Below are positions 1 to 56,961 of a stretch of DNA of 64,000 nt, piece by piece. The stretch comes from Antedon mediterranea (Eukaryota; Animalia; Echinodermata). Location: positions 5,472,422 to 5,536,421 of the forward strand of contig NC_092678.1 in the NCBI RefSeq assembly GCF_964355755.1. The letters are read 5' to 3'. The translations under genes were made by a program, and so were the position numbers. Under the pieces are notes generated by a model. It saw only the letters and a program-made list of their open reading frames with translations. It ran no database searches and had not been told where the DNA came from. Positions within the stretch are counted from its first letter, which is position 1. Each line of letters begins with the position of its first letter.

Positions 1-801
1 GTACCACTGGGACTTGTACGTACCATTGACGACCTAGAAGAACACAAAGTATCAGATGTAGTATTAAACTCCGATGGTTTTATATTAGTAGCAAGCTATT
101 GTAATCAGATTCTGAAGTATAATCAATCAGGTGAAATTGCTGCCAATGATGAAGTGACACCGAACACTAAGTTGAATAAGATGCACAAAATGGGTAATGG
201 TTACATTTTGTATAGTGACACAGAAGGGAAGAGAGTTGTAATGTATACTAACAAACTTAAAGAAATAAGACAATTTGGTAAAGGAATATTGGAATGTCCA
301 ATGGGGTTGACAGTAAACAACAAAACAAATTCTATGTATGTTGCAGATGAAAAACTTAATTGTGTATTCAAATTTGATGTTGATGATGATACAAAACGGG
401 ATGAGATAGGTTCTAAAAATAGAGAACAAGCTAAACTGAATTGTCCGTGCGATGTCACTTTAAACAAGGAAGGTCATTTAATGGTTACCGACTCTGGTAA
501 TCATAGAATACTAGTGTTTGATGCAGATGGTACCTTTATTAAAAGACTTATAAGCAAAGGTGAGGAAGATGGGAAAGTTATCCATCCTAATGCTATAGTA
601 ATGGACATGGATGAAAACATAATAGTAACGAGTGAAAATAAAGTACAATTATTTCATAAAAATGGTGATTTTATAAAACGAATAGATGGCATAAACGACA
701 GTATTGATAAACCATGTGGAATCAGTGTGATCTCCAATAGACCAAGGAGAGTAGCCATTGCAAATGGTGGAAAGAACAATGTGAAAATATTTAATTACTA
801 A
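1..801 (+). CDS. NHL-repeat beta-propeller protein, 3' part of terminal exon (5'-truncated by window); paralog of the 13774-18805 gene
   Basis: Frame 1 is open from base 1 (VPLGLVRTIDD...) to TAA at 801. It has NHL blades (CPMGLTV, MYVAD, DSGNHRILVFDADG) and aligns collinearly with 17986-18805, ending NVKIFNY vs NVKILNY. Confidence 0.9.
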   Translation, partial: VPLGLVRTIDDLEEHKVSDVVLNSDGFILVASYCNQILKYNQSGEIAANDEVTPNTKLNKMHKMGNGYILYSDTEGKRVVMYTNKLKEIRQFGKGILECPMGLTVNNKTNSMYVADEKLNCVFKFDVDDDTKRDEIGSKNREQAKLNCPCDVTLNKEGHLMVTDSGNHRILVFDADGTFIKRLISKGEEDGKVIHPNAIVMDMDENIIVTSENKVQLFHKNGDFIKRIDGINDSIDKPCGISVISNRPRRVAIANGGKNNVKIFNY

Positions 802-6000: not shown

Positions 6001-9000
6001 CTCTATCTACACTATCAAAGTTTATGTGAAAAAAAATGTAATATCATATTTGGGCATATCACTACAATATTTGGGCACATCACACCTTTTTTGTCAAACT
6101 AGTTTGATAGTTGAGACAGAGCTTAAATCGCCACTAGACAGAAAATCAAATATTTACCTCAGTACCACTAGCAGATGAAGGTTTCAGTTTCCACACATCA
6201 GTAGTAGCATCACTCTCAGCTTCTCTGCTACTGTCCAATACAAGCGCAGCCCCAACTCCCTCTGCCTCTGGTGAGGTCTGTGACTTAAGCTCAAGTGCCA
6301 GGCCAGCTTGGCTTCCTGATGCTGGCTGAGCTACATCTGATGACACATGGAGAGCAATATCTGATTCAACAATTGCTTCTTCAGCTTCACTTTCATCTGC
6401 CTTTGTATATGTGTCATTTTTAGTAATCTGTTTACAAAATACAAATATATACAAATAAAATGTGTATGGATTAATTATATAAAAACCTATTTAAACTATA
6501 CTACTGTTTGTAATACAATAAAAAAAAAGGTAATATGTATACATACTTATTTAACAACCACATTCAAACAGAGTTGATCCATAGAGTTCCTTACTTTTAT
6601 TGGGACAGATGATTCACTATTCAATGTCATCCTCTTCCTTTACTGTTCAGAACTTGAGTATAATCCCAACCGGGAGATTTAAATCTTGCTGGTCACACAC
6701 AGGTGGATATTAGGAACTTTTAGATGGAATAAATTACAAAAAACCTCTTTCCTTTTCTAAAATATATACAAATGACATACCTTCCTTTGGTTAGTTGACT
6801 GTGAATTCTGTAGATCACCTGACACTGTAGATACTGTCTGTTTGGATCTTGTTTTGTTCTTTGCTAGTGTCCTAGTACCTTTTTGTGTCTTCTTCAGAAT
6901 AACTCGCTTAGAGGCTGAACTGGGTTTCTACAATTAATTAATTATCTGTATATTATTCTTCGCAAGGTAAGGTGAATGCAACGCCTAACTAGGCAGGCTT
7001 ATTACATAAAGGAGGCCTAGCTACCCGACCCAGCAGTAGATATTCTACTTGTTATTGGCTATACAATATAATAGATATCAACTTTTATATCGGTAAAATA
7101 TAAGATTTGATATTCCCTCGGGAAGGATATTTTGTTCGAGGGAATATATATTTCCCTCTAACAAAATATCATTCCCTCAGGGATATCAAATCTTATATTT
7201 AACCTTTAAGCAGGCAATATCTGTATAATATAAGATGATAATTTTGATTACAGCTTGTGTATACAAAACAAGTCTTACTTCATTTATCTTGGTTTCTGTA
7301 TCACTTTTCTGGTGACTAACAGCCTATTTAAAATTTAAAGAAAATTAAGATAATGTCATGTAGATTTAGTCGTGTTCACAAATCTATATATAAATTTACG
7401 TAAGGGCAAAATTCGGTAAATCGCGCCTTACTTCTAGAATTTTCACTCGATGGTATGTAAAGTTGGTTCGTACTTTCGGTACTGATTTTAACCGCCTGAT
7501 GTAACCCTGTTTACTAATTAAATTGAGTTAGATAATTAGTTATTGACGATTAAAACGAATTTAGGTTCAAAGATTTGCCCCAAATAGGGGTGTTTTCCGA
7601 TCGTGGTATACACTGTCTAATGGATGTCCATCTTGAAAAATACCTGCCAAAAAAATGCGAGGAGGCTTCGCATTTTTCTATCTCCTCCTACGATAATTGT
7701 TTTTAATAGCTGAAAACCGGTTGAACAGCTAGAGTACACCATCATAATGTTGAAGACAGGCCGATTTTCTTTAAAAAATACTATTTTGATAGATTTAATA
7801 TACGATTATACAAATGTATTGATTTGCGATGAATGGAACATCCCAATCTCTCAGTCTGCCAGAGTTTGGTTTAACACAAGTACTGTAGGTAAATTTATGA
7901 GCCCTTGGTTTAACACATACGGTAGGTAAATATATGGGCCCTTTGAGAATAAACTTGCAATACTTTGACAATACTGTAAATACCTATTAACTATTTTTCA
8001 TTTGAATCGAACATTTCTTACTGTGAATGTTCGTACTGTTAGATGTAATATAAAAATATATACAAATAAACTTTATTACTGAGACTGTGGATAGGCTCTA
8101 CTGTTAGATATACAAATAAACTTTATACTGACAGTTCCTTCTCAACGTTTGTATTAATTAATAATTACCAAAAATATAAACGTCGTAGTGGTGTATCGTG
8201 ACATGTACTTTAATATTTCAATCGATTATGACAGTGACAGTTTTAACAAAGTATTAAATCGCAAATGTTTTAGGCCTACTGTATTTAGAGGTATATTATT
8301 TATAGGCCTATAAAACATGAACAAAATATTTCGTTACTCAGTGGATAAAGAATATATTTAAAAATTGTTCCTCTTTGTACCTATCCGCTTTCCCATCCCT
8401 CAACCCTAATGTTACATAGCGAGGAGGCTTCGCATTTTCCTATCTCCTCCTACGATAATTGTTTTTAATAGCTGAAAACCGGTTGAACAGCTAGAGTACA
8501 CCATCATAATGTTGAAGACAGGCCGATTTTCTTTAAAAAATACTATTTTGATAGATTGCTAGAGTACACCATCATAATGTTGAAGACAGGCCGATTTTCT
8601 TTAAAAAATACTATTTTGATAGATTTAATATACGATTATACAAATGTATTGATTTGCGATGAATGGAACATCCAGTTTGGTTTAACACAAGTACTGTAGG
8701 TAAATTTATGAGCCCTTGGTTTAACACATACGGTAGGTAAATATATGGGCCCTTTGAGAATAAACTTGCAATAGGTTCGGAAAATGTTAAAAACCAATTT
8801 CTATTATTTGAATCGGTAAACAGTTTCCATTTATTATACATTGATAATGAAACATGAAATATTCCTATTTATGTCCCTCGAGGTTCATTACAATTTATAT
8901 TTAGTAGTCCCACGGACTTCATCTTAGCCACTCCCCCGAGTGCTAAGGCCAAATTTATGATACCCTACTTTCTATGTAAGTTTAGTTACAGTTAGTTCTT

Positions 9001-12000
9001 GACGATAATACAACGAATTTAGGTTACACCCTTCGGCCGCGAAACTGTTTCTGTACAAATATGATACCGATTGGCTTTATTTCATTCAACAGCGACCATA
9101 ATCTCGCCAATTACAGGATAGATAAACTATTTTATTATTGATGTGCTTATAAATTAAGACTCATGTAAACAGCTTGATTACATCATTTTACAGACAAACG
9201 AAACTTTTTTAAACCTACTGTTTCAATAACTGAGTATAATACTGTATACGTTTTCATAAGTAAGTGCATATACATTTTCGTGTTTTCATTGACGAGATTG
9301 TAATAGTAACTTCAGTAACTATTACAGATACTTATTTATTATACGACACAAGACAATTGTATCTGACAGGTACGTACATTATTCTAAAAAATAAGTCTAG
9401 ATAGATCCCTTAGGCGTCATAAATCACAGGCCAACAAATCAGTACTCATGACAGAAATTCGACCCAGTTTGGTTCACACAAATGTTTACAGGAAGTTCAA
9501 CACCACAACCGATGATTTGCCCTAAATATTTAGGTAGACTACAGTTTAATTTTTCACTGAATAGGAGCTTGAATTTCCAATTTCCATTTCGCAGAATGTC
9601 TAGGTCTATTTATTTAGTTTGGTTCTTATAATATATAAATACAATCAACTTTATTACTGCGGTTCCATCACCACCACCACGTGCCGCCGCCCAATTCCCG
9701 TACATACATTTCCATTTCTCCCTAATTTCTTTAATCCACATAAATTAATTGTCCTTTATGGAATCCAGTATTGGTTTTGTTGTCTCTATTTCTGAATACC
9801 CCAATTAGGGGGACACTTCCGTTTTTGTTTAGTGTCCCAAAAAAGTCCCCGTCCGTGGATTCTACTGTATTCGAGAACCATCTGTGAGCACCCCTAGATG
9901 GTACGCGAGCGAAGCGAGCGTGCCATCTAGTTATAATAATTAATATAATTATATTTGATTAGTACTAAGAATGAGAGTTGTTTCTTGCCACACACATTAA
10001 CAAAACTCATGGAACAGAAGTCTCCATTTTGGTGCTACCTGTGGAAAAAGTCGCAGTTTTTAATTGTCATGAATTTAAATGCCTCTTAATTTTGTATGGT
10101 ACATATATGTGAATGGACTAAGATAAAAATTCAAACATGAGATGTTTATCTTGAAATATTCTAATAATTAATAATCAATGTGAAATGTATTGACAGAAAA
10201 CAAACAAAAATGGTGGGTATACAAACATGTAAATATATATTCAGAATTAATATTGATGTTTGTTATATTGATGTTTTTTAAACACAATGTTGTACTCGGC
10301 ACTTCATTGAAAATTTATAATCCATTGTGAACTGTACCTATTGTTATATTTCATTAAGTAAATAAAGTATTTTGCATTAAATAAACATAAATTGGCACAA
10401 GGTATACATAATACAATTTCAAAACGGTACTAAATGCCATAAAGTGTAAATATTCCAGACTAGAAGTACTGTATGAAATACATTATTATCTTCTGATAAG
10501 ATAATAAACACAAAGCTTTGGTACTGCACTGAATAGCTGACCCTTGACCCTCACTAGCTACGATTTATTTTAATCAATAGTAATCATTTTCCATAATATA
10601 AATAGCAGGGAATTTCCAGTTTGTAAAGCTTCTGCTATTTTGAGGCTATTTTAAGGTCGGAAAGGTAGAATGTATTGTGGATAGATTAATACTCAATGTA
10701 CTGTATTGGCAACGATTCTGAGCGGAAGTGGAACTGAAACCAGCGGTAAGTAATATGCAATAATTGGTGTAGAAATTAATGATCTCGTCTGCAACATTCT
10801 CTAATAAAATATATATATATATACAGAGGGTTTGAGAATTCAGATCAAATGTAAAGTCAAAAAGAATACTAGTGTTTTGTAAGGAACCATTAATAAGAAT
10901 TACAATGTAATACCACCTTATTTACATTTCATTTCATTTCATTTATTTCGTCTCACATAATTATACCAAAAACATAACAAACAATAGAGAGAGACATGAT
11001 TCCCAAAAGCGAACTAAATCAAACTATCCAGCAAAACAAAATCATCCAACAATAAAATACAAAATTACAACATTAAAAACAACGTGAAGATTAAAAAGTA
11101 CAAAATATCTATACAAAAGTTACCCAAGACATTATTTTTATTATTATTATTGTTATTATTACTGTTATAATTATCACAGATATCAAATGAAGTTTCAATT
11201 TTTCGTGGATTAATGGCCGATAGTTGTAAAAGAATAAAAGGAAATATTTTGCTTAAAATAACATTTTAATTTATTAATAAATAAGCCTAAGTTAATCGGG
11301 AGCGTATTTCTAAGATCCTGAGGCAACCTATCCCATGAGCGTTGAAACTGCTTAAATGTAGAAAATTTAGACTTTTCAGTCCTACCAAACTTGTGAACAA
11401 ATCTTAGATCATTGTCACGCCTGAGGTTAAACTGAACAAAATCAAAAATTTTAAAATTATATTTGTTATAGAGATATTTGGAAACAAAGGAAATCAACAG
11501 GTAATTTATACGACCATCAAAGGATGGAAGACCAAGAACTCCAAGTCTCTGCTCATAAGAGGATTTAGGTATACAAACCCTGGTCATGCGGCGTTTAACC
11601 CGCTCTAAAGATTCAATCTCTCTCTTGCAATACGGAAACAACGCCGGCATCCCATACTCCATAATAGGTCTAACAAGAGCATTAAAAAGCTTCGGGATAA
11701 CGATGTGGTTTCTAAAACGCACGACCCTCATGATAAACCCCAGAAGCCTGGACGCCTTAGCCTTAACATTTGCGACATGGGTACCCCATTCAAGCTTGTG
11801 TGTAAAGGTAATCCCAATATATTTAAAACACTCCACCCTCTCAATAACGTTCTCCCCAATTAGATAATTGATTGCACTGTTCTTAAGTTTGGCTGATCTA
11901 GTAAACCGTATGTGCTTACATTTAATAGGATTAAGCGGTAATTTATTAACAACACTCCAATTATAAATTTCGTTTATGTCGTTCTGCAATGCAGCACTTT

Positions 12001-15000
12001 CTTCGGTAGATCTTATTGCCCTGTAGACTGCTACATCGTCGGCATAAAGTAAAATATTCAATTCAATGAAGGAGGACAAGTCTAAAGTAAATAGGTATGT
12101 AATCTGTAGCGTGTGTTTGTTTGTTTGTTAGCAGGATTACTCAAAAAGTAATTACAAGATCTTTACCAAAATGAATAGACAGATAGATATGTGGTCAAGG
12201 ACCATTCCATTAAATTTTGGGACCATTTGGGATCACAGTCCCAATTCAGGACCACTTTTTAGTATACTTTTTCAGACCTGCTAGTTTTAAAAGATAGGAC
12301 AGAATTTTTCAAAAGCCGGCGAGCAGTCTTAAAGTAACAAGTAAACTGAAATTGCATTTACTTCTCCAAAAAACTTCATTTTTTAACAAGAGGCAAGAGT
12401 TATAATTTGTGATGTGTAATCTTAAAACATAATTTGATTTAATGTGCACGTTTTTTGATGCGAGTAGTTTAAAAAACCTATTTATTTTCAAATTCACTCG
12501 TTTGATTTTCGCGTTGCTGTTCTATTGTTAGTCAACTGAAGCTATTGTTAATTGAAAGGCTTGTTACATAACCATTACACGAAACTCGCATACACATGCT
12601 TGTAATGAAATTAGCCTAAATCACAAACAGCATTAAGACACACACAAATATATATATTTTTTTTTACCGGAGAAATCTTATGTAGGAGAATTTTACAGCA
12701 GGCGGAAGTATGCACTCTCGGAGTGGCTTTCTAGTTTTAGGTGCAAAAACTGTTAAGTTTGTAAATATTTGGTGATCCACCACAGTCACACTATCAGTTT
12801 ATTCTAATCTAAATTGGCAGCAATCAGGGCGTAATTGTAAATATATAAACTTAATTATTTTAGTATTATTTTGAATTACTGTTATTGTTTTAATATACAT
12901 TTAAAGTTAAATTTATTTTTTATAGGAAAGTGAACTTAGTAACCTTAACATTTCTCACTCTGTCAATTAATTTGCATAACAAAACAGTACAGTTCTACCA
13001 TACCTCCCTGGTTCTACTACCCATTTGACTTCTAGAAACCATAAATTATTTGTATTGTATATTAGATATTCTAATATCCATTTAAATTCAAGCAACCATA
13101 AATTCTTTGTATTGTATTTTAGATGATTATACAGACTTAGTTATTCACGCCTTAGTGGATGCTACAGCAACATTTTTAAGCATACTTGCTTTAATAACGC
13201 TATATTTGTAACTTGGGGAATTTACAACTATTGTCAATTTCTAGGTAGTGGGTTTATGGAACTGTTTATCATTTCTATTCTATTAGTTTTTATATGACGC
13301 CCTACAAAGAACAGAGCGCTTAACAAATACTTAGTAATTAATTAAAAAGAAAAGTTTTAAGTTGACGTTTAAATACAGGAAGCGCGTTCCAGATCCGCGG
13401 AGCAGTGGCAGAACAAGCATTGTCACCAGCTTTCAAATTAGGTCATGGAACGAAAAGTCGGGTAGGACCATTAGAGGAGCAAAGTCGACAACTGTAATTA
13501 AATGAAAGCTGATCACGTTTAAACTTAATTAAATCAAATTTGAGGTACAAAGGAAAAACAGAGTAAATACATTTATAAACAAAAAAAATAATTTTATACA
13601 ATATTTTTTTTATGGAACTCTTTCAATAAATCACCATCAGAAGACTGATCCCGTCCACACGCAAAGACCAGCAGCGCCGCCTAATCGTCGTCACAGTAAT
13701 TGTCGTTACTGTATTATTGACTTTATAATTGTCACACTATTTTAATAATTCTTTATTTTTACTATTCCAGAAAATGTCAAAAGACGAATTTGCAGATTTA
13801 CTTTCAGATATTAGTAAAGAATATGATGGTGATGAATATTTTCAGTTAAGATTTCTGTTAAAAGACCACTGTTCTGGAGCATTATTAGGCAAAAAAAACA
13901 ACACAGGGCAGACATTATTTAATGAACTCATTGACCGAGGTCACATTTCTCATCCCCCTACAAATGTGGAGATTCTGATTGAAATTGCTAAACTGACAGA
14001 AAAGACTCAGGCTTTAACTTACCTTAATGATTTTAAAAATGAACATGAAAATGGAAATGAAATCAAGGTGAAACCAATAACAGAATTTCGTAGAAATCTT
14101 TATAAAGCTATAACAACAAATACAGTTGAAGTATCAAGAATTGCTGCAGCCTACCAGCTAGGTCATCATAATTATGGGAATACTTGGGATCTTGTATTCA
14201 AGCTTGAAAGAAGCAAACGGTTGGTGGACACAAAAGTGTCAAAGAAAAGGTTTGCAAAACAACTTGACGAGGAAGCAGGAGACATTTTGCTCGGTTGGTA
14301 ACTTTTTTATATAAAACTACTAAAATCAAATATTGCAGACAAAGAAATATTCCTGCTGTCCATTTAATGACAATTACATCCAGGTCTTAATGCAATATAC
14401 CTTACATTTCACAGGTAAATCCTCTGGTATAGATGAGCAAGAAAGGTCTGTGTCATCCACACTGCAGTCTGGTGACCACATGGAAAGAGGTGATATTATT
14501 TGTTCTCAAAATGATTAAAGTTAATTGATTCAATACAGTAAACATTTTCCGGTTTCATGTTATTGAAGGATGCTAGAATCGGCCATATCAAACGATTTGT
14601 ATAAAACTACTTTTAACCTATTTCACAGGTGAATCTTCTGGTGTACATGGAAAAGAACGTCTAGAGGCACCCACTTCGCAGACTGTTGACTCCATGGAAG
14701 AAGGTAACACAATTTCACCATTAAAATGCATGCATCCAACAACTATAACTTTCTTACAAACTAATAATAACTTTTATCCCACACTAATGGTGCTCTGCAT
14801 TTATGGTGGATTTCTTGTCATGCTAAAGGTTGCCTACAATATAATTTTCTGTTTCACAGTTGAAACCTCTCAGACAGAAGTACAAGATGCATCCACATCA
14901 CAGTCTAAAGGTCTCAACAAAGATGGTAATTTTTATTTTAATATCAATTAGTATTATTTGTTGTTTAATTGTTATTTTCAGAACAACAGTGATGATGTTT

Positions 15001-18000
15001 AAAAGTTATTGATTTATGTTTACTATAATTATTACATTTCTAGATTTATATGATTTCTTTGTTGTAAGTGATGATGGTGGTGAATGGGAAAATAGAGTAA
15101 TAAAGGAGCTGCAAAAATTAAGATCAGATGTCACTTGCCTAAGTCAAACAGACTGGAACCCTTCACTTTTTTGGACAGCAAACTTGTCAAAACTTTCTAA
15201 AATATGTAAAATGGTATTAGTGGGCTTTACATCAAATCCTATGACAAAATATTCAGAGTATACTGCTCAAGTAATGCTTCAACGATGGAATAGTACAAGT
15301 ATGGAAAAACTAAAACTGATTATAGCAAAAATAAACAGGGATGCCATCATACCGGATCTCTTGGACGGAGTATCTGTTAGCAAAGGTTGGGAAAAGGATT
15401 TCTATAGAAAGATCCTCAACACATTACGTGAAGAAGGTAATGTTACTCCATATCTAATAACAATTCTTTATAGTTCTCCATAGCAGACTTCAAAACTATG
15501 TTGAATAATACACATGTTCTTCTTGTGGTTATGTTTAATGATTTTTATTAAATTGTTTATTTGATAAACAAACAAAAAATTGAATAACTTAATATTTGTA
15601 TATTTATAGTTATTGGAGTGATAGTAAAGACACAGAATTCGGAACAAGAAAAACCTGTTTATAATTCATGTGTCAACAAATTTTCAAGACTGAGAAAGTT
15701 TTTTGAAAGATTCAGAGTCATCTTAAGATGTATTGGAAAGAGATCTATAATCCTTCACCTTGCTGTAAATGATGCAAATAGTTTGATTATGTTATGGGAA
15801 AGTCATTTAAAGGAAGAGTTGAAGAAAGATCTGGCAGAGATATTAGAATATCCTGCAAGTGAATTGGAAACAGAAATAGATGAGTATGAATATCAGGTTG
15901 TTCTCAGCAAACTAATGGAAAATGGTAAGTTTATTTTTTAAACACTATTGAAATATCAAAAGATAACTAACCAATGATGTTTAATTTTGTTTAACTTTAC
16001 ATTTCTAGATGTATGTGATCTCTACATTGTCAGTGATGATGTTGCATGGGAAGAAAGGGTGATAAAGGAGCTGAAAGGAAGAAAACGAGGTATTCAATGC
16101 CTTAGTCATGAAGACCCTTCACTTAGTACTGGTGACTTGTCAACTCCTACAAAGAAGTGTAAAACGGTAGTAGTGGGCTTTACACAAGGGCATGCTGATG
16201 TTTCAAATCATGTTGCTAAATTCATGCTTGAAAAAATGAAAATAAATGAAAACATGAAAAAAGCACAACTGATCATAGCAAGAACAGATGAGAACGCTGT
16301 CATACCAGACTCTTCTAAGTTAGTATCGGTTATCAATAGTTGGGATAAAGATTTCTACAGTCAGATCCTGAACACACTAAATGAAGAAGGTAAAGTTACT
16401 GTATTCAATCTCTATCATTGATAATTATCATTAATAATTTGAGTTATTATCATTATTATGGTATGAACATTATTTATATATATATATTACTTTTTTTTTT
16501 TTTTATAAATTAATATTTTTACATTTTATAGGTATTCTATTAAAAATAAACATACAGAATTTGGAACATCAAAAACAAGTTTATAATTCATGTGTGGAGA
16601 AATTTCCAGAATTGGTAAAAGTTTTCCAAGAAATGATTCCTGCCACATTACGATACATTACCGAGGGATCAATACTCTTCCACCTTGCTGTAAATGATGC
16701 CAGCAGTTTAAATAAGTTATGGGAAAGTCATGTCAAGAAAGAGTTAAAGAAAGATTTGGCAGAGATATTACAATGTCCTGCAAGTGAGTTGGAAACAGAA
16801 ATAGATGAGCATAAATACCAGGATGTTCTTGGAAAACTAACGGAAAAGGGTAAGAATTACACTGTGTTTTGGAAATGTTCCACTTTACCATCTTTAAGTA
16901 GGAGATTCCCCTCATTTACCTCTTTAGAAAAGTAAAGAGAAAGTGTAGTTTTATTTTATTGCATTTTGACCGTACACTGATAATTATAACAATCTTATTT
17001 AGGTACAAGTAGCCAAGAAGGTGTCACCACACAAACCAGTACATCCTTAGATGAACCTGTCATAGATGTTGAAGTAAGTGTTCAACATAACATATAACAA
17101 AACACATCTCTATGATAAAAAGCATAATAAACATATTGAAATAAATTACTGCTAACATATGACATTAAGCGAAAAACCTGTCCCCTCCCATTCGAACGAC
17201 TTTTCTGTAGTAAGTTTAAAATGAAAATAGGATCATCTTACCTCAGCATGCATCGTGCATCCATTGCACAATTATTTCTTTTTTGCAGAAGATCCTAATT
17301 TAGTTTTTCCCTTCATATAATCATAAATTAAGATTTTGTCAAACTGTATTTGTACTACCTATAGATGCAGTTGAAATTTGATATCCCATTAATCAATATA
17401 AAAAATACTTTATTACTTTATTTATAATACTTGAATTAAAAAATGTGTTAATATTATATCATCTTTAATTTTTAAGAATTATAAACAGTTGCAAATGAAA
17501 AAACTCATTGAAACGCAAGAGAATAAGCTTGAATTCCACCAAGATTCAAAACCTGACCACCACAAGTCAAATATCAATGAAAGTGCACAACATGAAATAG
17601 AGAAAGCATCAGAAATGTATGCCAAACTAAAGTTTATGAACATTAAACAATTTCTAATCCACATTTTAAACATTTCTCCTGATAATATGACAAGAAAAAT
17701 TATCCCAGATTCTGTAAAGTACATCATTGGAGAAGATAAGCCTATTACTGTAACAAAGGGACAGCCATTTGTAGTGAAGGTACAAAGTGAGAATAAAAGT
17801 GTAGAATGCAATTTAGTTGCTACTCTGATAAAGCCATCAGGGGAAACAACTGCCACAGATGAAGTAAAATATGTAGGAAGTGGAAAGTACAGAATAAAAG
17901 GTAGATGTGACGAGGAAGGTGATTGGAAGATGAATATCATTTCTGCTAGAATAAAAATTAAAGGTTCGCCAGTGAATATCAAAGTTGAACCACTAGGCCT

Positions 18001-21000
18001 TGTGCATACCATTGAAAACATAGCAGCACACAAAGTGGATGAGGCATTCAACGTATCAGATGTAGTATTAGACTCAGTTGGTTGCATATTGGCATCAAGC
18101 TATTGTAACGAGTTATTGAAGTTTAAAAAGTCATTTAAATTTGAGGAAAATGTAAAGGTGGCTGAAAATGCTATGGTCAGAAGAATGCATAACATGGGTA
18201 ATGGTCACATTGTGTACAGTGATTTACACAAAAACATTGTTGTGATGCTTAATAACAAATTCAAAGAATCCACTCAATTTGGTAAAGAAAAATTGAAATG
18301 TCCATGGGGCTTGGCAGTAAACAATAAAACACGAGTTCTGTATGTTGCAGACAGTGAAGTTCATTGTGTTTGTAAGTTTAATCTTGATGATGGTACGGCA
18401 TTGGGTAAGATAGGTTTAGAGGGTAGAGGAGATGGTCAAATGAAGTTCCCAAGAGATCTCACTTTAACCAAAGAAGGTCATGTAATGGTTGTTGACTGTG
18501 GTAATCATAGAATACAGATGTTTGATGCAGATGGTACCTTTATCAAAACACTTGTAAGCAAAGGTGAGGAAGATGGGAAAGTGATGAACCCGCGTGCTAT
18601 AGTAACAGACATGGATGAAAACATAATAATAACCAGTGGGGATAAGCTACAATTATTTGACAAAAATGGTGTTTTCGTAAAACGAATAGATGGCAAAGAT
18701 GATGGGATTAAGGATCCATGTGGAATATGTGGAATCTCTAATAGACCAAGAAGATTAGCTGTAGCAAATTATGGACAAGGCAATGTGAAAATACTTAATT
18801 ACTAAACTTGAAGCCAAAATTACACACTAAATCAAGATGGAAACGGGTCAAAAAATCACTATATGCTGATTAACACCTTGTTTATGGGAAATGACTGTTT
18901 TATGTAAGTTATACTATATTGTTCATATGTAAAAGGGTCCTACAAAAAAACAAAGCTACAGCTTTTTTATGCAGGATCCTTGTTGTATTGCAATTATGAC
19001 GTGATTGATGACTAAATAAATGTGAAAGCAACGGGTGGAGTTCAAATATATAAATGTGCAATATATATCATACAGTATGATCGAATTCACTCTTTAACAG
19101 AATAAAACTTAACTATTGTAAAAACCTTGAAAACTAGCAATAGAAAATACAGTACTATAGGAAAAATCATATTCTAACAATTATTAATTATTGAAAATAA
19201 TTCTGAATTATGCATTTTTTAGTCTTTATATTGTCTTTACCATGCCATTGAATGTTTTTTTAAATTTTAAAAGGATTTATAAACATTTTAATTAAAATCG
19301 CTGAAAACTTTAATGCAACATTCATACTAAATACATTCCTTGTTACTTGTATGATCAGAATTAAAGTCAAAGTTTTCTGTTTTATTTGTACAGTAAATTG
19401 TAAAACATTATTTATATACTATTTATAATTTTTTAGTCAAAGAACTGTGAAGGGTGAGAGAAATAATTATTTGTAAAAAAGTGATACAAAAAATAAATCT
19501 GCAAAATGAAAAATATTTCAGTGTTTAGTGTCCTTACCTTCTTGTTGGTAGTATGGTTGATAGACTTTTTCATCAATAATTTCACATCTATTTTAACATT
19601 GGCAAGACTGTACCTTGACAGTTGCTGTGGGATTGGTTCATCAGGTGCTGTTTCAACTGGCAATGGTTTTGGTGGCTGAACATCAATCAATGACATCACA
19701 TCTGAAAGTAAATGGTTTAAACAGTTAAAAATCAATTCAGTTCGAGTCTCTGGAAGCTATATTTTGTGTCCAACCGGACCAAATAAAAGTGGTTTCTAAT
19801 TGGGAGAGCCATTGAAGTGGAGGTGTGGCTTGGTTCTTTAATGTGCTTGCCTTCCAATCCCAAGGTCCAGGGTTCAATCCCGACATAACGCAAGAGTTGT
19901 AACTAGACACTACTCTACCCTCTAAGCCTGAAGTATAAATGTAGTTTATCCATCTGTAATTGGTGAGTTACATTAGCCTGTTCACGTCGCCTAGCAAACT
20001 CTGACATTAGGTGTACATCCCCATTAGAACTTTTTGGTCAAAATCCTTATCAGATATATCAACTAAGCAGGTGATTAATGACTTGAATCCTATTATACCC
20101 CTGTAATATTATTAGCTCTCTTGTAATTGATTGATTAGGAAAAGGTACATTCTTCAGTATGCAAGGTCAATGGTCAGGCAAAAACTAGCAGAAGTCAGCA
20201 ATGATCAAAAGGTTTAACGACCTGCCTATCAAAGTTGGACTTATATAAACACATGTCACAGTAGGAGGTTAAATGACATTTACCCAAAGTTTTGAAAAAC
20301 TTCAGGTAAAAATGAACACATTCTCTAATGGGGCTGTACACGTAATGGAAGTTTAACCCATTTTGTAAAAAATAATTTGGAAGCGTTTCTACTAGAGGGA
20401 GTCTTAAATCAAATGGTCTCAATTGGAAGGTGTTCCCTTATAACTTGAAAAGTCTTTAATTGGGGTGAAAGTGGTAATTTCAGTTTAATATATAAATGTA
20501 ATCTAACCTAGAGGGTGTTCTGTGGTGCTTAGTGATTCACTGATGATTTCTTCATTTTTCACTTCTTCATCTTCTATCTAAAAAATAAAATATTTTGTCA
20601 TTCGCATTTTAGTTCGAAAAAGAGAATGCAAGCAAACAAATTTTAAAAAATTAAGCACAAAAAAAAAGGGTATATACAAAATCAAGGCAATTACAATACA
20701 TATAATACATTGATAATTTTCAGAAGAAAAATATTATGTACAAAACGGTTAAATAAAATAAAGGCACTGTTAAATTCATTATGTTTGTATAAAACCAACC
20801 AAAACATTCATTTATTTACCATTTGGCAAATAGCCTGAGAGAAAACCAACAGAGAGGTAGGGACCTCTTGACTTACCTCAGATGATGAGTTATATTCTGG
20901 TGTGGAGGATGGTGTAATGGTAGGTGACGGACCTGGAGAGACGCCAAATTTTGGCATTTCATAGTCACCTATTTCTCTTTCCTGTTCTTCCATCATCTTT

Positions 21001-24000
21001 AAAATACTTCTCTTTTTTACTGAAAAATATAAACAAAAAAGGTTAGTTTATAATTATGTCCAAGACACGGAACTGACCGACTGAAAGTAGTGATGATGGC
21101 ATTAATTATGTCTGATCAATACAAAATGTGCTCTTTTAGTTGCAGGCAATAAATACAGAGGATAAGGTTCAGTCCAGTAAAGAGCTTAAGCAGGGAAATA
21201 GGTGATAAAGTTAGGACACTTTCTGGAATTGGAGGTTACTAAAACAGTATGTGAAAGGGAGGGATTACCATCAATTTACTAGTACAATTTTATTTATATC
21301 TAGCGTTATACTAACGTTATCTAAATTTTTTTTTAGGCAAGTAACTGTACATACATTTCAAGATTTCACTGTTAATATCCTGTTGATTAAATTCGCTGTT
21401 GAGAATCATGTCAATAACTGATAGAGTTCGAGGTGTTCCACTTGGTGACAAATAAATGTCACTTGGAGCCATTGACATGTCACTGTCAGAGTCCTCTTCA
21501 CTTTCCTATAAAAAAAATGTACAAATTGTTGACGATAAACAAAATTGAGTTACCATAAAAACGAGACTTAATCATAAATTGTTCAAAGGCGGATAAAGAC
21601 TAGAAAAGTCAGGTTTGTTTCCAAAAAGGATGAATGTATCAAAGCCTAATTAACACACATGACATGACAAACCTAATACTTTACTACTACTGTTAACAAT
21701 TATAATTAACAAACCTCAACAGAGTTTTGTTCAGACTCAGAGCTTTCTCCTTCCAAAAATGCATTGCTGAAATCCAAATTGTAAGGAACCTGAAGAAAGT
21801 AAAATAAATTTCAGGTAAACTGTGTTTGTCAAAATCTTGAATTAGATATCTTTTATTGTACCTTTTCTAAGTTGTCCATAAAGTAGTTAACACTGCTGCA
21901 AATCTATAGATTAGATTAACTTTTAGGCTTTTCATTTTGTTATTGTTATGTGTGTTTTTGTATATCTATATTTTCATCGTCGTGAGGTGGTTTCCCGAAT
22001 GATCGTAAAATCAAAAACGGTACTGTGTATGACCAACTAGCGTTAATATAGGTGTATACACTGTTGGATGTGTAAGAATAAGCATAAAAAAAATATATGG
22101 TTGTAATGTTAGACTTTCTTTTGCTCATATAAACGACTTTCTTTTGCTCATATAAACATCATTACATATGAAAAAGCGGTATTATGTTAGAGAATTATTT
22201 GCCGTATTGTGCAACTTACAAGATAACGTGCCATGTTAATTGAGTCAGTGTTTGATGGAACACCTTCAAATCGCACGGCAGGGTCTTCATAGATATCAGA
22301 TTCTATAATAAAAATAAACACATAAAAGTACATAAACATTAACTGAATGTCCTCTTCAGCAGATTAAACATGTTTCTTTTATGTTGATAATATACAGGGT
22401 GAACAGCCAATAGAAAATCTTCAGGTCATATTGTGTAGCATATCTAAAGCCTGGCGCACACTAGAGCTATTGGCTAAGCCAACTGGCACAAGTAGTACTT
22501 GCCTCACAGTGTGCGCCGGGGATTTTGTGAGGAATTGGCCACGCGTGCCGCTGAGGAAAATATTAATCGTGTTTAATAATATTTTTTGCCACGCGTGTCA
22601 TCTTCCTCAAGTGTGCGCCGAACGTGAGAAGATAGCTCACTTAAAAATTCCACTGCGCATGACATGTTCTGATTTATTATATATAATATGTCAGCGCGTG
22701 CCGTATAGCGTAGTAAGTAATTATCCAATAAGAAAATCTTGTACTGAAGGCGTTTAGTGTGCATCCGATAGAACGCGATCAGAGTTTGCGGAAAATTTTT
22801 TTAGTGAGTCAAGTGTTACTCGTGCCAGTTGGCTCAGCCGATAGCTCTAGTGTGCGCTGGGCTTAAGCACAAAACTGGACATACCAACTATATTATATAC
22901 AATCAGAATCACTGAATTAGATTGATAAAAATATTGAGTGAATATTAAGTATTGAGTGTAATGGGGACATTTTCATCTTTACCATCACACATGTTACTGA
23001 ATTGGATTGACAACATTCCAAACGATCACTGTACAAAATACGTATTTATTACCTGATTCTATACAGCTATCGTGAAGTGAATTGCAATCTTGAGATATAA
23101 CTGAAATTTAAACAAAATGGCAAATATTATCATTTACTGCTAATTATATTCCAGTCATATCCAATGTACCTTGTTATCTAACCTAAGACCTTGTCTACAC
23201 TATCAAACTTTATTATTTTTTTTTATTATCAAAAAAATGTGATGTGCCCATATATGGACCTGATAATGTCATATCACTACCATATTTAAGCATAGCACTA
23301 CCATACATGGGCACATCGAACTTAGTAATTAATTAGTACAGATAAGGATGATACACACAGAATGTTACAGAAGCTTTTTTTCAGTTTTGTTATGTTACTA
23401 ATACATTTGCTGATACATACATACTAACAACTACTACAAATTTGCCAAAGCCACTTTAGAGTTTTTTCAACTTTTTGTTTTTAAAGAAAAAGTATTAGCT
23501 TGTGTTACAAAATAAATTCTTACGTTTAGTATGACTGATCTGAAATAAATGATTCTTGTAGCCAATGAGGAGGTCTCCCTTCACATTTAAAAAATAAGCA
23601 GAACTGATTGGTCCATCCAGGATGACCTCAGTAAGCGTCACCTTGTGTTTGTTGCATATTTTTATCACATTATCCTCCCTATGAAAAGAAATAAAATAGT
23701 CTTTAAAATATAGTAATACATTTTTGCTGCCTTCAGAAATCATTTCAAAATAAAAGGAAATAATGTTGAGGTTTAGATAATGTATGTTTCTGTTTTTTTA
23801 ATTTATAAATGTTTTTGGTGATATTATAAATTTATTCCACCATATAAAAATAATGTATGACAAATGATGGTGAGGGCAACCATCAGAGCAAACTTAACAT
23901 TCAACCATAGTGTTGAAATAACATGAAAATAGTACAATGTGTGCACTTTAATACATAGAAGACATTGTTCTTAGAAAATAAAGAATTCTACTTACCCACA

Positions 24001-30000: not shown

Positions 30001-31809
30001 TTATACAACTACGAAAACTTAATTAAATAAGAGGTACGATAAATGAGGCAGTCAAAAATAAATACCTTTATTATGAATGCTGTCCTTGTTCCATGTTGTT
30101 ATGCCTCTGGTGTCAAGAAAGATAAACTCCCTGCTTCTTGGATTATAAGTCACTAGAAAGATTTAAAAATATGAAAATTGCAATTAAATTGCAAATGTTT
30201 GTACAATAACTATACGCTGGTAATATGATTTGTGTCCATCTCTGGACTAATACCCCTTTCACACCAAAAGCAAAACTCCGGAGACACTCCGGAGACACCC
30301 CGGAGTTGACGTCCCGCTGTTTGGTGTGAAAGGTAAAATCAAGCAACTCCGGAGTTTAAAACTGCGGGGTTGAACAGCTGAACATTCTCCGGAGAGCGAA
30401 CTGCGGGGACACCCCGGTGTTTTGGTGTGAAAGGTACCAACATCAAACTCCGGAGTGTTTCGGGTCAAAAGGTCATCCTCACACGATCACTCTTTGCTTT
30501 AGTTTTATTTAAAAATACTTTAAATATTTGTACAAAATATATAGCGGGTTTAAAAAATAATTAGTAGTATCAATAAAACATTATATTACTTCTGAGACTT
30601 TTGAAAGTAATTATTAAATTAAAAATATTGTTAATTAAAATTATTCTAATGATCGTCGCTATGTAAACAAACAGAATAGAGGGTGACATTTACAATTTTA
30701 TTTTATAAACCCCGGTGTTGCTAGGTTGGTGTGAAAGGGGTATCTCCGGAGTTTCTCGACGTTTCGAATGGTCATAAACCCCGGGGTGTCTCCGGAGACA
30801 CTCCGGAGTTTTGGTGTGAAAGGGGTATAATAGAGAACTTTTCTTGGCAACTTAATTTTTGAACTGCAACATAGTAATTTGTTTTCAATTGATTGTAACT
30901 TGCACAATAATAATATATGAAAGACTTTGTTTATGTAGAGTATCTTGTGTATGTTTGTCTTGTGAACCTCTGAGGGTACCTAATGATCAGCAATAGCTGG
31001 ATGGATTACCCTCATTAAAAATGGTTTAAAAAAAAAAATTTTTTTTTAAATAATAAATAATTAATAATTTTCTGGTACTCGACTTGAAGGCAAAATGTCT
31101 AAGAAATAACATGTTAGTAGCCTGTGGAATAGCCATAGATATTGGGCAATATGAAAATCGCCATGCAGCTTTAAAAATATATTGGTACAAAAAATTGATG
31201 GATTCTTCAATATATACCCAATAAAATATACATACAATATTGACATGACATACTATCTACACTATCAAACTTTATGTGACAAAAAAATGTGATGTGCCCA
31301 TATATGGACATGATGATGTTGTATTACTACCATATTTGGGTACATCACTGCCATATTTGGGCACATCACTACCATATTTCACTTTTTTTTTGCTAAACTA
31401 GTTTGATAGTGTAGACAGTGCTTGGTAACTAACCATCAACTAGATCTGTCAGTTTCTTGCTATGGATATAAAGACTCTTGAGTTGAAATCCCTCGGGAAT
31501 AAAATTGAAAGAACTTGTCTTAACACTGCTGTTGTCATCATCATCTTTGAAAGAGCTTGTCTTAACACTGCTGTTGTCATCATCTTTGAAAGAGCTTGTC
31601 TTAACACTGCTGTTGTCATCATCTTTGAAAGAGCTTGTCTTAACACTGCTGTTGTCATCATCTTTGAAAGAGCTTGTCTTAACACTGCTGTTGCCATCAT
31701 CTTTGAAAGAGCTTGTCTTAACACTGCTGTTGTCATCATCTTTGAAAGAGCTTGTTTTAACACTGCTTCTGTCATTATCATCTTTTATTGTATCTTCCAT
31801 GATTGACAT
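3051..31809 (-). CDS. WD40-repeat protein of the WDR87/WDR97 type, ~1734 aa, 34 coding exons, long low-complexity C-terminal half
   Basis: Phase-consistent GT-AG exons: 31809-31434, 30152-30066, 29846-29737, 29393-29197, 28796-28659, 28239-28160, 27759-27594, 27096-26890, 26745-26584, 26318-26217, 25826-25649, 24976-24902, 24772-24620, 24201-23996, 23678-23524, 23100-23053, 22302-22220, 21789-21715, 21505-21355, 21019-20877, 20577-20508, 19701-19538, 7323-7279, 6927-6781, 6427-6158, 5963-5666, 5480-5007, 4886-4819, 4596-4550, 4341-4270, 4174-3954, 3828-3690, 3526-3395, 3216-3051 (5205 nt, no internal stop seen). WD repeats include AHQSQITGC..LITCSADTNVKVWS and GHSKAVTNI..LTSSMDGSVRLWS. The FLNVKGDLLIG segment resembles WDR87/97 (family call from recall). 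Confidence 0.8.
5999..6123. mobile_element. Harbinger/Tourist-like MITE family A (TIR AGCTCTGTCTACACTATCAAACT), copy 1
   Basis: ctctatctacactatcaaag...aaactagtttgatagttgagacagagct followed by TAA; 8 related copies in the window. Confidence 0.75.
7095..7200. repeat. ~105-bp imperfect palindrome, probably internal to a non-autonomous DNA element
   Basis: aaatataagatttgatattccctcgggaaggatattttgtt...aacaaaatatcattccctcagggatatcaaatcttatattt. Confidence 0.7.
7657..8772. repeat. ~310-bp dispersed direct repeat (7657-7962 and 8419-8772); second copy has an internal ~70-bp tandem duplication
   Basis: gcgaggaggcttcgcattttt...gagaataaacttgcaata occurs twice, nearly identical. Confidence 0.85.
10597..10751 (+). 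promoter_or_regulatory. Candidate promoter and first non-coding exon of the DED-TIR-NHL gene: TATA, NF-kB site, ETS and ETS-IRF composite motifs, splice donor
   Basis: TATAAAT 10597-10603; GGGAATTTCC 10608-10617; CGGAAGT 10723-10729; GGAACTGAAA 10730-10739; consensus donor CG|GTAAGT at 10746. Confidence 0.55.
10925..12090 (-). mobile_element. 5'-truncated CR1/L2-group LINE with an uninterrupted RT C-terminal frame (11210-12079)
   Basis: YADD catalytic motif, then KYIGITF, LVRPIMEY and WDRLP; 3' UTR ends in AATAAA plus a (TGAAA)n tail at ~10925-10947. Confidence 0.9.
12091..12735 (+). mobile_element. Non-autonomous Helitron/Helentron-type element
   Basis: 5' gtgtgtttgtttgtttgttagcaggattactcaaaaag microsatellite head; 3' hairpin GCACTCTCGGAGTG followed by TTTCTAGT. 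Confidence 0.6.
13774..18805 (+). CDS. Multidomain immune-type protein: tandem DED-like, linker, TIR-like, TRADD-N-like, TIR-like, TRADD-N-like, Filamin, NHL repeats (~1180 aa, 10 coding exons), nested antisense in a WD40-gene intron
   Basis: Exons 13774-14293, 14415-14489, 14629-14703, 14860-14925, 15044-15436, 15610-15924, 16009-16389, 16532-16849, 17003-17073, 17477-18805 splice in frame (3543 nt). DED: FADLLSDISKEY..QLRFLLKD..LFNELIDRGHI. TIR: YDFFVVSDD..EW..VIKELQ..CLSQTDWNP..KMVLVGFT..IIPDLL..W..FYRKILNTL. TRADD-N-like: GSILFHLAVNDASSLNKLWESH..ETEIDEHKYQ. Filamin: GSGKYRI..IKGSPVNIKV. NHL: CPWGLAV, FPRDLTL, DCGNHRIQMFD. Confidence 0.85.
19820..19985 (+). mobile_element. tRNA-Gly(TCC)-derived SINE (other copies 47510-47700 minus; tail fragment 9085-9165 minus)
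   Basis: A-box-like TGTGGCTTGG, GCCTTCCAA anticodon-arm relic, B-box GGTTCAATCC; shared tail TAGTTTATCCATC(C)TGTAATTGG in three copies. Confidence 0.7.
22448..22863. mobile_element. PIF/Harbinger-type MITE
   Basis: ~45-bp TIR (AGCCTGGCGCACACTAGAGCTAT.../...ATAGCTCTAGTGTGCGCTGGGCT) with TAA TSD on both sides. Confidence 0.85.
23187..23320. mobile_element. MITE family A, copy 2 (partial)
   Basis: tgtctacactatcaaactttat...aaaatgtgatgtgcccatatatggac; right TIR missing. Confidence 0.65.
24270..24546 (+). mobile_element. Decayed RTE-clade LINE 3' fragment
   Basis: Broken frames read WHGHITRSS..MQGIV..WKDNINEWT, ending in a (TAAAG)n tail. Confidence 0.6.
25080..25524 (+). mobile_element. Decayed L2/CR1 LINE 3' fragment
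   Basis: TFKCL..DYL..HNLNTRS..L.LP..IRS..SFK relic, T-rich UTR, AATAAA and (CTAT)n tail. Confidence 0.55.
26005..26163. mobile_element. MITE family A, copy 3, inserted inside a small foldback element (arms 25978-26004 and 26168-26196)
   Basis: Both TIRs present; outer arms acattgtatgcatgttcaatgtctcttga / tcaagagacattgaacatgtatacaatgt. Confidence 0.75.
27903..28025. mobile_element. MITE family A, copy 4
   Basis: agctctgtctacaccattaaac...aaactagtgtaaatagagcc. Confidence 0.7.
28474..28623. mobile_element. Tc1/mariner-pogo type MITE (second, inverted copy at 29541-29695)
   Basis: TA-CAGTC...GACTG-TA termini; internal sequence is the reverse complement of 29541-29695. Confidence 0.7.
28864..28968. 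repeat. Near-perfect 105-bp foldback palindrome
   Basis: ~51-bp arms around a CTA loop with 4 mismatches. Confidence 0.9.
30251..30827. mobile_element. PIF/Harbinger-type MITE with subterminal repeats
   Basis: TIR TACCCCTTTCACACCAAAA / TTTTGGTGTGAAAGGGGTA, TAA TSD on both sides, repeated GGTGTGAAAGG and CTCCGGAG. Confidence 0.85.
31250..31423. mobile_element. MITE family A, copy 5, abutting the first coding-exon donor of the WD40 gene
   Basis: atctacactatcaaactttatgtgac...aaactagtttgatagtgtagacagtgct. Confidence 0.75.
31505..31785 (-). repeat. Coding 39-bp minisatellite, 7 x SSVKTSSF(KDDDN)
   Basis: Near-identical units; one carries an extra GAT codon; frame preserved within the first coding exon of the WD40 gene. 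Confidence 0.95.
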
Positions 31810-32754
31810 GAATGTATTACTTTTCAACAGAAATATTTATTCATGTCATTTTTCTTCTGTTCAGTGTTCATTCAATGGTCTTGATCTTTTTAAATTATCA
31901 TGTCAAATTTGAACCAGACAGTCTTGAGCATCACTTCTCATAAATTTGATACACGACAGGTCTGGTCCTCCTATAAAATAATTAAAAAGAAAATATGTAA
32001 ATGTATGTTATGCGCAATTTGTACAATTCGATACACAAAAAATTCTCAGAATATATTTTGGATTTGGTTAGGTCTGGTTATCGAATCATAGTAGCCTGTA
32101 GGGGAGCTAGCCAATATGGTAGAGATTTAGTCTTAGACTAACCTAATAGGGGCCCTTTCCTATAGGCCTACTAGGCTATAATAAATATAGGCAGCAGACG
32201 CCACAACCACCACCAGTCTGTATGCAGGCTGATAAAGTATAAAAATAGGCCCTAGCTAGTAGACCTATGAATAGCCTACTACTAGGCCTAGTACTAGGCT
32301 ACTACTACTAGCACTTCTAGGGCCCAGAGGTAAGTAGGCTATCTACTCTATCTAGGCCTAGGCCTAGGCCTATCTAGCTTAACCTTTTTATTTAGGCCCT
32401 CCTCCTTACATCATACTTCACAGAGTGGGCCCTATTATTATGCCTAGGAAGCCTAGGCCTAGTTGTTATAGGCTAGTACTCTAGCTAAAACTTAGCTAGC
32501 TAAGCCTACTAGGCCTAGGCCTAGGCAGGCCTAGCCTAGTAGGCCCTATCTATAGCCAAGAAGGATGGATAGGTAAGGTAGCCTACTAGCCTAGCTAGCT
32601 TACCTAACTTTAACTATAAAAGTAAGCTTTCTGTAATATTTACTATAATAATAATATAACTAATAATCCATGCCCCAGCTATATTTCAACACTTTAGCCC
32701 ACCTAGGCCTAGGCCTATGTCATATTCAAATGTAAAAATCAGACAAAATATTAC

Positions 32755-44994: not shown

Positions 44995-56961
<11,967 letters not shown>

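Follow-up and report, generated by a model that had tools for sequence, protein, structure and literature searches.

The DNA analysed here (the window) is a 64,000-nucleotide stretch of contig NC_092678.1 from the crinoid Antedon mediterranea (positions 5,472,422 to 5,536,421, forward strand), and all coordinates below count from its first base. On the plus strand, positions 13774-18805 are predicted to form one gene of ten exons, which belongs to a TRIM-NHL family of crinoid type (Table 1). The gene appears to be nested antisense in an intron of about 12 kb of a minus-strand gene, and the 3' end of a paralogue lies at the left edge of the window.

Gene structure

From the ATG at 13774 to the TAA at 18805, the joined exons comprise 3543 nucleotides, coding for 1180 residues plus stop in a frame without internal stops. 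The nine introns are all GT-AG and 84-403 nucleotides long; introns 1-8 are in phase 1 and intron 9 is in phase 0. Thus, the proposal of the first-pass annotation that ten exons join into one intact frame of about 1180 residues was borne out. Each of the large middle exons (5-8) carries a single domain. The TIR-TRADD-N unit is duplicated internally (exons 5-6 and 7-8), with 69.7% DNA identity over 910 nucleotides, introns included, and a synonymous divergence (dS) of about 0.5 between the copies. For the duplicated linker exons 2 and 3, the ratio of nonsynonymous to synonymous divergence (dN/dS) is about 1, with a wide interval.

Table 1. Coordinates of the features at the locus and module order of the retrieved relatives (tDED, tandem DED)
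Feature	Position	Strand	Description
Exon 1	13774..14293	+	Tandem DED, residues 1-173; weak donor GTTGGT after 14293
Exon 2	14415..14489	+	Ser/Thr/Glu-rich linker, 75 nucleotides, phase 1-1; 75% DNA identity with exon 3
Exon 3	14629..14703	+	Linker, duplicate of exon 2
Exon 4	14860..14925	+	Linker, 66 nucleotides, phase 1-1
Exon 5	15044..15436	+	TIR 1, TLR/MyD88-like, without catalytic glutamate; BB loop Pro-Ser for Pro-Gly
Exon 6	15610..15924	+	TRADD-like N 1 (by profile); R-S at conserved tiny-Ser motif
Exon 7	16009..16389	+	TIR 2 (by homology), BB loop shortened
Exon 8	16532..16849	+	TRADD-like N 2 (by profile); G-S motif intact
Exon 9	17003..17073	+	24-residue linker, phase 1 to phase 0; consensus donor GAA|GTAAGT
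Exon 10	17477..18805	+	77-residue remnant, Filamin (816-910), six-blade NHL propeller (911-1180), stop
Paralogue 3' end (NHL)	1..801	+	Clipped by window edge; 74% DNA and 58-60% protein identity
Reverse-transcriptase fragment	11210..12127	-	Pfam RVT_1, E 2.8e-6; probably remnant of a long interspersed element (LINE), 1.6 kb upstream of the gene
P0004			TIR-TRADD-N-RING-B-box-coiled coil-Filamin-NHL
P0003			TIR-B-box-Filamin-NHL
P0006, P0007			tDED-B-box-Filamin-NHL
P0042			tDED-TRADD-N x2-tDED-RING-Filamin-NHL
P0020			Antedon mediterranea XP_071954612.1; TIR-NACHT-LRR, same TIR class; animal NLR with N-terminal TIR
P0024			TIR-kinase
P0035			TIR-helicase
P0016			tDED-TIR
P0049			tDED-Roc
P0018			TIR-TIR-TRADD-N-Roc-TIR-TRADD-N-tDED
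P0051			Same modules on Roc body
P0045			Same modules on deubiquitinase body

Two of the modelled junctions are soft, namely the exon-1 donor and the exon-10 acceptor. The acceptor may lie at 17477 or at 17489, and both leave the frame unchanged. The weakness of the GTTGGT donor counts against the model, as does a rival donor, GTAACT, 4 nucleotides downstream. Since the rival shifts the frame into an immediate stop and has no convincing in-frame acceptor, exon 1 would have to use GTTGGT. In support of this donor, the tandem-DED module ends at the identical residue in five relatives. In addition, RNA-supported introns of the neighbouring gene have similar donors with T at +3 (GTTAGA, GTTTGT), and therefore GTTGGT is a usable donor in this organism. 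The residues at the exon 5/6 junction are identical in the Antedon model P0017, and zero-difference DNA contigs, possibly from the same sample as the window assembly, span 16779-17779. In an RNA run labelled as the same species, none of the 15 listed joints (17 in total) fell at a modelled intron, which is neutral because the covering contigs are mostly 80-95% alike and thus come from paralogues; in the same run, the neighbouring gene has five GT-AG introns spliced out on the reverse strand. In DNA runs of this organism, 0 of 15 listed joints (29 in total) coincided with a modelled intron.

Domain assignment

The domain order DED-DED-(TIR-TRADD-N)x2-Filamin-NHL, as read in the first-pass annotation, was recovered by Pfam, profile searches and Foldseek, with TRADD-N by profile only. 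It comprises a tandem DED (residues 1-171), a low-complexity linker (174-245), TIR (246-376), TRADD-like N (about 384-481), TIR (482-608), TRADD-like N (about 616-714), Filamin and NHL. The DED, TIR and TRADD-N domains of vertebrates reside in separate adaptor proteins, and here they stand in one chain.

In exon 1, Pfam detected the first DED with an E value of 1.6e-6, below the curated cut-off. A 14-sequence tandem-DED profile aligned with both DEDs of the caspase-8 prodomain (E 2.3e-4), and an AlphaFold2 model with a predicted local distance difference test (pLDDT) score of 91 had the tandem DED of caspase-8 as best Foldseek match (template modelling (TM) score 0.72-0.74), with cFLIP and vFLIP ranked under it. 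The head thus has the tandem DED fold in common with the caspase-8 prodomain, cFLIP-S and vFLIP, but no caspase or caspase-like domain was found by Pfam in this gene. When exon 1 was searched as a single sequence against longer proteins, 0 of 828 candidates matched; this blank was put down to insensitivity, because an alignment search then gave 13 proteins.

For exon 5, the AlphaFold2 model (pLDDT 89) had the MyD88 TIR as top Foldseek match (E 2.7e-5, TM 0.75-0.79), so that the expected fold was recovered for the TIR as for the tandem DED. The family TIR profile matches the TIR domains of TLR2 and TLR3. In the ESM Atlas, TIR clusters were found for exon 5 at 0.90-0.92, ranked beneath two unnamed clusters, and Pfam detected neither TIR of this gene. 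Exon 7 is 48% identical to exon 5 and is matched by the family profile with E 1e-41; by homology, it is expected to adopt the TIR fold as well. Among 34 TIRs of the family, the share of glutamate is 0% in columns 73-75 and nowhere exceeds 35% in columns 69-83, the region of helix C in which we presume the catalytic residue to lie from the TLR3 alignment and the active-site motif. Since no glutamate is conserved there, the TIRs of this gene are likely of the scaffold type and not NADases. The fold of exon 5 is the adaptor type of MyD88, TRAM, MAL and TLR TIRs, with the BB-loop Pro-Gly altered, and the TIR family of this gene is missing the catalytic glutamate of the NADase TIRs (SARM1, plant and bacterial type). 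The BB loop of the family reads W-I-P-G-K (Pro in 16 of 25, Gly in 21 of 32).

Exon 8 matched Pfam PF20694 with E 6.1e-5 (23.2 bits against a cut-off of 23.7). Its ESM Atlas match at 0.94 shares 220 of 256 features with a cluster of which 18% carries PF20694; for the cluster at rank 3, this share is 54%, and overall the TRADD-N matches (0.93-0.94) favour PF20694 over PF13820. Exon 6 is 63% identical to exon 8 and alone gave no Pfam TRADD match, nor did a PDB search with a two-sequence profile return TRADD. Exons 6 and 8 are therefore assigned as TRADD-like N domains by profile only. They are under purifying selection (dN/dS 0.41, interval 0.22-0.72). The tiny-Ser motif is linked to TRAF2-MATH binding (Kaur et al., 2021; PMC8195603); exon 8 has it as G-S, whereas exon 6 reads R-S. 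The gene has this family and its motif in common with TRADD, but has no death domain. A SEN1_N match on exon 6 and designed repeat proteins from the two-sequence profile search were dismissed as helical chance matches.

In exon 10, Pfam identified NHL (E 1.5e-15, six repeats) and Filamin (E 0.005), and the PDB relatives are Thin, TRIM71 and TRIM2/3. Identity to crinoid TRIM-NHL proteins is 46-57%, and the NHL domain is under purifying selection (dN/dS 0.52, 0.34-0.76). Filamin and a six-blade NHL propeller are common to TRIM71/LIN-41, TRIM2/3, Brat, Thin and TRIM56; in contrast to these, the present gene has no RING, B-box or recognisable coiled coil, and its ligand face is variable. A RING was found neither by Pfam nor by a motif scan nor by a crinoid RING-B-box-coiled-coil profile on six frames, and a B-box neither by Pfam nor by motif and profile mapping nor by the six-frame profile. 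The same profile revealed no hidden RING or B-box and no significant coiled-coil match in intron 9. The best B-box match by tblastn (E 0.02) was rejected, being at chance level, in another frame and interrupted by a stop. The 77 residues preceding Filamin (739-815) show a short similarity to the coiled coil of a relative that is not significant (E 0.58). No NACHT/NB-ARC or SF2 helicase matched in the six large exons, the other four exons being 66-75 nucleotides long.

Relatives in crinoids

Exon 10 has 14 long relatives, and the best nine are all named from Anneissia japonica and Antedon mediterranea. A two-TIR profile search of 1.84 billion proteins found 21, of which 19 are TIR-like; all 10 relatives whose source was checked belong to one of these two species, as do all 13 matches of the tandem-DED alignment search. 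Many divergent copies are also present in DNA runs of this organism. Modules were mapped in the relatives with profiles seeded from this gene, after P0029 and P0032 (MBG, ankyrin repeat; two of the 21 proteins), the non-crinoid P0010-P0014 and the 53-residue P0037 had been left out. The retrieved set, which includes this gene and isoform duplicates, gave 19 TRADD-N, 34 TIR and 25 tandem-DED matches.

At least one module and Filamin-NHL occur in one chain in 7 of the 11 crinoid NHL-bearing models (P0003, P0004, P0006, P0007, P0009, P0041, P0042); the remaining four are of the plain RING type. Thus, further gene models of Anneissia japonica and Antedon mediterranea also have such a head fused to such a tail. 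The Filamin-NHL of P0003, P0004 and P0006 from Anneissia and of P0007 and P0042 from Antedon, annotated as TRIM71-like, TRIM2-like or uncharacterised, is 46-57% identical to that of the present gene, and their N-terminal modules are the same. However, these five keep B-box and coiled coil, two of them also RING, and each has one or two module types, whereas this gene has no RING, no B-box and no recognisable coiled coil but all three module types. The earlier suggestion that three modules had replaced RING and B-box did not hold, as P0004 and P0042 carry modules in front of an intact RING-B-box-coiled coil. This points to an addition of modules, followed by loss of RING and B-box in this gene. 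In a tree of NHL domains, the paralogue at the window edge is sister to the NHL of this gene (support 96/92). The tree requires 3 changes per head type, but 5 of its 11 branches are open and single origins are possible, and therefore we make no claim of repeated grafting.

Models P0015-P0035 and P0041-P0051 represent two families, one with tandem DEDs and one with divergent, TLR-like TIRs, most of which score below the Pfam cut-offs. The same two families occur on Roc-COR, kinase, DEAD helicase, deubiquitinase, ubiquitin and LRR bodies, and those with a named source are all crinoid.

Ligand face of the propeller

The RNA contacts of zebrafish LIN41 named in PMC5908797 include eight basic residues. 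The ligand face was defined by the LIN41 contact classes on the 6fpt sequence, that is, by the residues flanking the repeat proline and the loop after the conserved Asp. Over 13 crinoid-type NHL domains (P0041 excluded for its long branch), entropy is 2.12 bits on the ligand face (29 positions), compared to 1.13 for the whole domain and 0.88 in the opposite-face loops (37 positions; Mann-Whitney p 7e-10 against the ligand face), a contrast that is weakened by the fact that the faces were assigned by motif anchors, not by a 3D model, and that the sequences are related to each other. Between this gene and the paralogue, the proportions of nonsynonymous and synonymous differences (pN/pS) are 0.43/0.44 on the ligand face and 0.12/0.39 on the opposite face; a ratio near 1 on the ligand face fits relaxed constraint as well as positive selection, which likewise tempers a sensor interpretation. 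The NHL ligand face looks like a diversifying binding surface, which is not proof of positive selection. Only 4 of the 29 ligand-face positions are basic here, as against the eight basic contacts of LIN41. Because the basic pocket with which LIN41 binds RNA hairpins does not appear to be conserved in this gene, the NHL ligand may be RNA or protein.

Discussion

The protein is quite plausibly a cytosolic immune sensor-scaffold that is activated by clustering, and this is the function we favour, if tentatively. A one-chain receptor with ligand recognition by the NHL propeller had been proposed in the first-pass annotation, and two observations lend it real support: the hypervariable propeller face favours a sensor, and the same TIR class is found on the NACHT-LRR protein P0020. 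In such a sensor, a repetitive ligand, either RNA or protein of foreign origin, would be bound by the fast-varying NHL propeller and gather several copies, whose clustering would bring together a head of tandem DED, two non-enzymatic TIRs and two TRADD-like N domains. By analogy with vertebrate pathways, from which these partner roles are transferred, the clustered tandem DED might seed a filament of the FADD/caspase-8 type, the TIRs might associate with further TIRs of their own crinoid class, and a MATH/TRAF protein might be recruited by TRADD-N. Potentially, phase-1 exon modules were shuffled ahead of a single RING-B-box-coiled coil-Filamin-NHL exon by means of the short phase-converting linker exon, whereupon the TIR-TRADD-N pair was duplicated and the RING-B-box-coiled coil part eroded.

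The logic of this protein had been likened to that of NLR or RIG-I. This comparison holds loosely; pyrin is closer, because there is no ATPase switch, and activation would have to occur by clustering, as is thought for TRIM5 and pyrin. Pyrin (TRIM20) is a TRIM protein in which the RING is replaced by a death-fold domain (PMC4455283). Like the present protein, it combines a RING-less TRIM chassis with an N-terminal death-fold domain, a long linker and a C-terminal binding domain. However, it has PYD and B30.2 where the present gene has a tandem DED and NHL, its B-box and coiled coil are retained, and both TIR and TRADD-N are absent from it. The likeness to pyrin is one of analogy, not homology.

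Several observations weigh against the sensor-scaffold. None of the 11 retrieved crinoid NHL models combines all three modules with NHL, the relatives are predicted models, and P0001, P0002 and P0041 are probably fused neighbours. The apparent loss of B-box and coiled coil would remove the usual TRIM dimer. The divergence of TIR1 and TIR2 (dN/dS 0.79, 0.48-1.29) is indistinguishable from neutral, the BB-loop Pro-Gly is altered (W-N-P-S-L in TIR1, a shortened loop in TIR2), and the closest orthologue-like model, P0017 of Antedon, ends without NHL.

A broader and more doubtful proposal is that crinoids possess a receptor repertoire built on the TRIM Filamin-NHL, in which the propeller face diversifies in the manner of TRIM5 loops or NLR repeats and interchangeable phase-1 exons set the output. 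This gene would be its most complete member, a one-chain signalosome without RING or ATPase. If this is true, recognition by NHL would be linked without intermediaries to caspase-8 filaments, to the assembly of TIRs and to the recruitment of TRAF.

Since the BB loop is altered in both TIRs, a role as decoy or regulator is also possible. Less likely than the sensor-scaffold, the protein could be a ligand-targeted brake, in which the caspase-less tandem DED acts like a short cFLIP or vFLIP and the altered TIRs are decoys, and which would, with the same low probability, dampen the RING-bearing and NACHT-bearing relatives at sites picked by the NHL propeller. cFLIP and vFLIP are indeed among the structural matches of the caspase-less head, but caspase-8 ranks above cFLIP. 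The TIRs lack the catalytic glutamate in addition to the changed BB-loop motif, the lost RING leaves no ligase activity, and pyrin, the nearest analogue, is reported as both activating and inhibiting (PMC4455283). However, hypervariability of the binding face is more in keeping with foreign ligands than with a constant partner from the host.

It is rather unlikely that the gene does not encode one stable chain, whether because exons 1-9 and exon 10 belong to separate or alternative transcripts, or because it is a paralogue that was relaxed recently and has so far kept an open frame. Separate transcripts are suggested by P0017, which is 80% identical to TIR1 and 70% to TRADD-N1 and stops after an exon-9-like linker with V-S, matching read-through of the GTAAGT donor; it may be a truncated model or a genuine short form. 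Read-through of exon 9 leads to a stop after 7 codons, AATAAA occurs at 17126 and 17140 (a weak signal in AT-rich DNA), a Met of its own lies close to the beginning of exon 10, and the head-only models P0016, P0044, P0046 and P0048 exist. However, the donor of exon 9 is perfect and its phase is as exon 10 requires, and a similar short linker precedes the TRIM start Met in the fused P0004 and P0006. The weak exon-1 donor and the TIR dN/dS near 0.8 also speak for this reading, and Antedon P0009 resembles a degenerate version of the gene. Against this stand the spliced +3 T donors of the neighbouring gene, the common end of the DED modules in five relatives, the 1180 codons without stop and the dN/dS below 1 of NHL and TRADD-N.

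Least probable is a role in the control of host mRNAs in the manner of LIN-41 or Brat, with the death-fold adaptors linking RNA control to apoptosis or regeneration and not to pathogens: the Filamin-NHL is homologous to that of TRIM71, Brat and Thin, and the ligand face has arginines (R973, R1064, R1111) and aromatics (including W1015 and F1062), but those arginines are missing in most paralogues, the ligand face is the most variable part of NHL, its basic positions are few compared to LIN41, and the net charge of NHL is near neutral (37 K+R against 35 D+E).

The gene fits the TRADD-N expansion proteins as a crinoid variant and is not a canonical TRIM, NLR or RLR. Lineage-specific DED-TRADD-N expansions with variable tails, including beta-propellers and TRIM domains, were described from sponges, cnidarians, bivalves, echinoderms and amphioxus and were read as immune or apoptotic systems (Kaur et al., 2021; PMC8195603). 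The DEDD2-clade and NCOA6-clade expansions of that study likewise have a constant DED/TRADD-N head, a variable C-terminal propeller and species-specific shuffling, and many DED-TRADD-N-propeller rows are found among the first 30 of 190 places in it. In its supplement 4, Stylophora XP_022798487.1 is listed as DED+DED+TRADD-N+coiled coil+Filamin+beta-propeller; it is one of eight Filamin rows (seven more with Filamin-propeller), none of which has a TIR, and Anneissia has 0 occurrences in the part of that supplement covered by the search. Among the first 30 of 325 'TIR' places of the same source are Branchiostoma dyads of TIR+TRADD-N with STAND, LRR or RIG-I tails. Both the Filamin-propeller tail of Stylophora and the TIR-TRADD-N dyad of Branchiostoma are found in the present gene. 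In contrast to the proteins of that study, it combines a tandem DED, two TIRs and two TRADD-N in one chain without a clear coiled coil. Thus, although no characterised case was known to the first-pass annotation, the theme was already catalogued in coral and amphioxus. The novelty lies in the combination of a three-module head with Filamin-NHL, together with an apparently undescribed crinoid expansion. At the level of titles and abstracts, with subscription papers outside the search, we found no description of a TIR-NHL fusion or of a crinoid TRIM-NHL expansion.

Kaur et al. (2021) predicted from architectures alone that immunity of marine invertebrates diversified by grafting of DED/TRADD-N heads on variable tails. 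Here, such grafting is visible at the exon level: domains sit singly in phase 1-1 exons, a linker exon changes the phase, and there is an internal duplication. NHL propeller binding surfaces are diverse, and an antiviral role is reported for TRIM56 (PMC9634614). Although the NHL propeller is known for conserved RNA binding in development, it shows in crinoids a measurable sign of a diversifying ligand face. Should signalling be confirmed, NHL would be a further scaffold for pattern recognition next to LRR, SPRY and TPR, and this in the echinoderm class that has been studied least. The family further offers natural head-swap variants for testing the roles of invertebrate TRADD-N.

Genomic setting and other features of the window

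The presumed host gene on the minus strand has RNA-supported exons at 19.5-22.3 kb. One of them, at 19701-19538, is followed by the donor GTAAGG; candidate exons in the same frame lie at 7323-5666, and the RNA contig comprises about 507 further bases by coordinates. A copy of the exon at 19701-19538 (2031-1862, 83%) adjoins the NHL end of the paralogue, and therefore paralogue and host exon were duplicated together. Reverse-transcriptase neighbours are mentioned by Kaur et al. (2021; PMC8195603), but a lone fragment of this kind in an animal intron proves little. Within the large host intron, local duplications of 140-280 nucleotides with 87-99% identity were found at 7657-8009 and 8419-8815.

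Short stretches of high depth with many loose read ends, probably dispersed repeats, lie at 13286-13436, 18919-19024, 19838-19888 and 21978-22052. A single open reading frame at 35795-37276 on the minus strand encodes a protein of 493 residues, in which two domains are immunoglobulin-like and one segment is likely transmembrane. Positions 38828-39184 (plus strand) contain one or more exons of an armadillo-repeat protein, and 55755-56201 (minus strand) one or more exons of a glutaredoxin-domain protein, which we take to be thioredoxin-glutathione-reductase-like. Finally, short tandem-repeat arrays at 31429-31912, 35007-35503 and 45525-45929 give long open frames on either strand.

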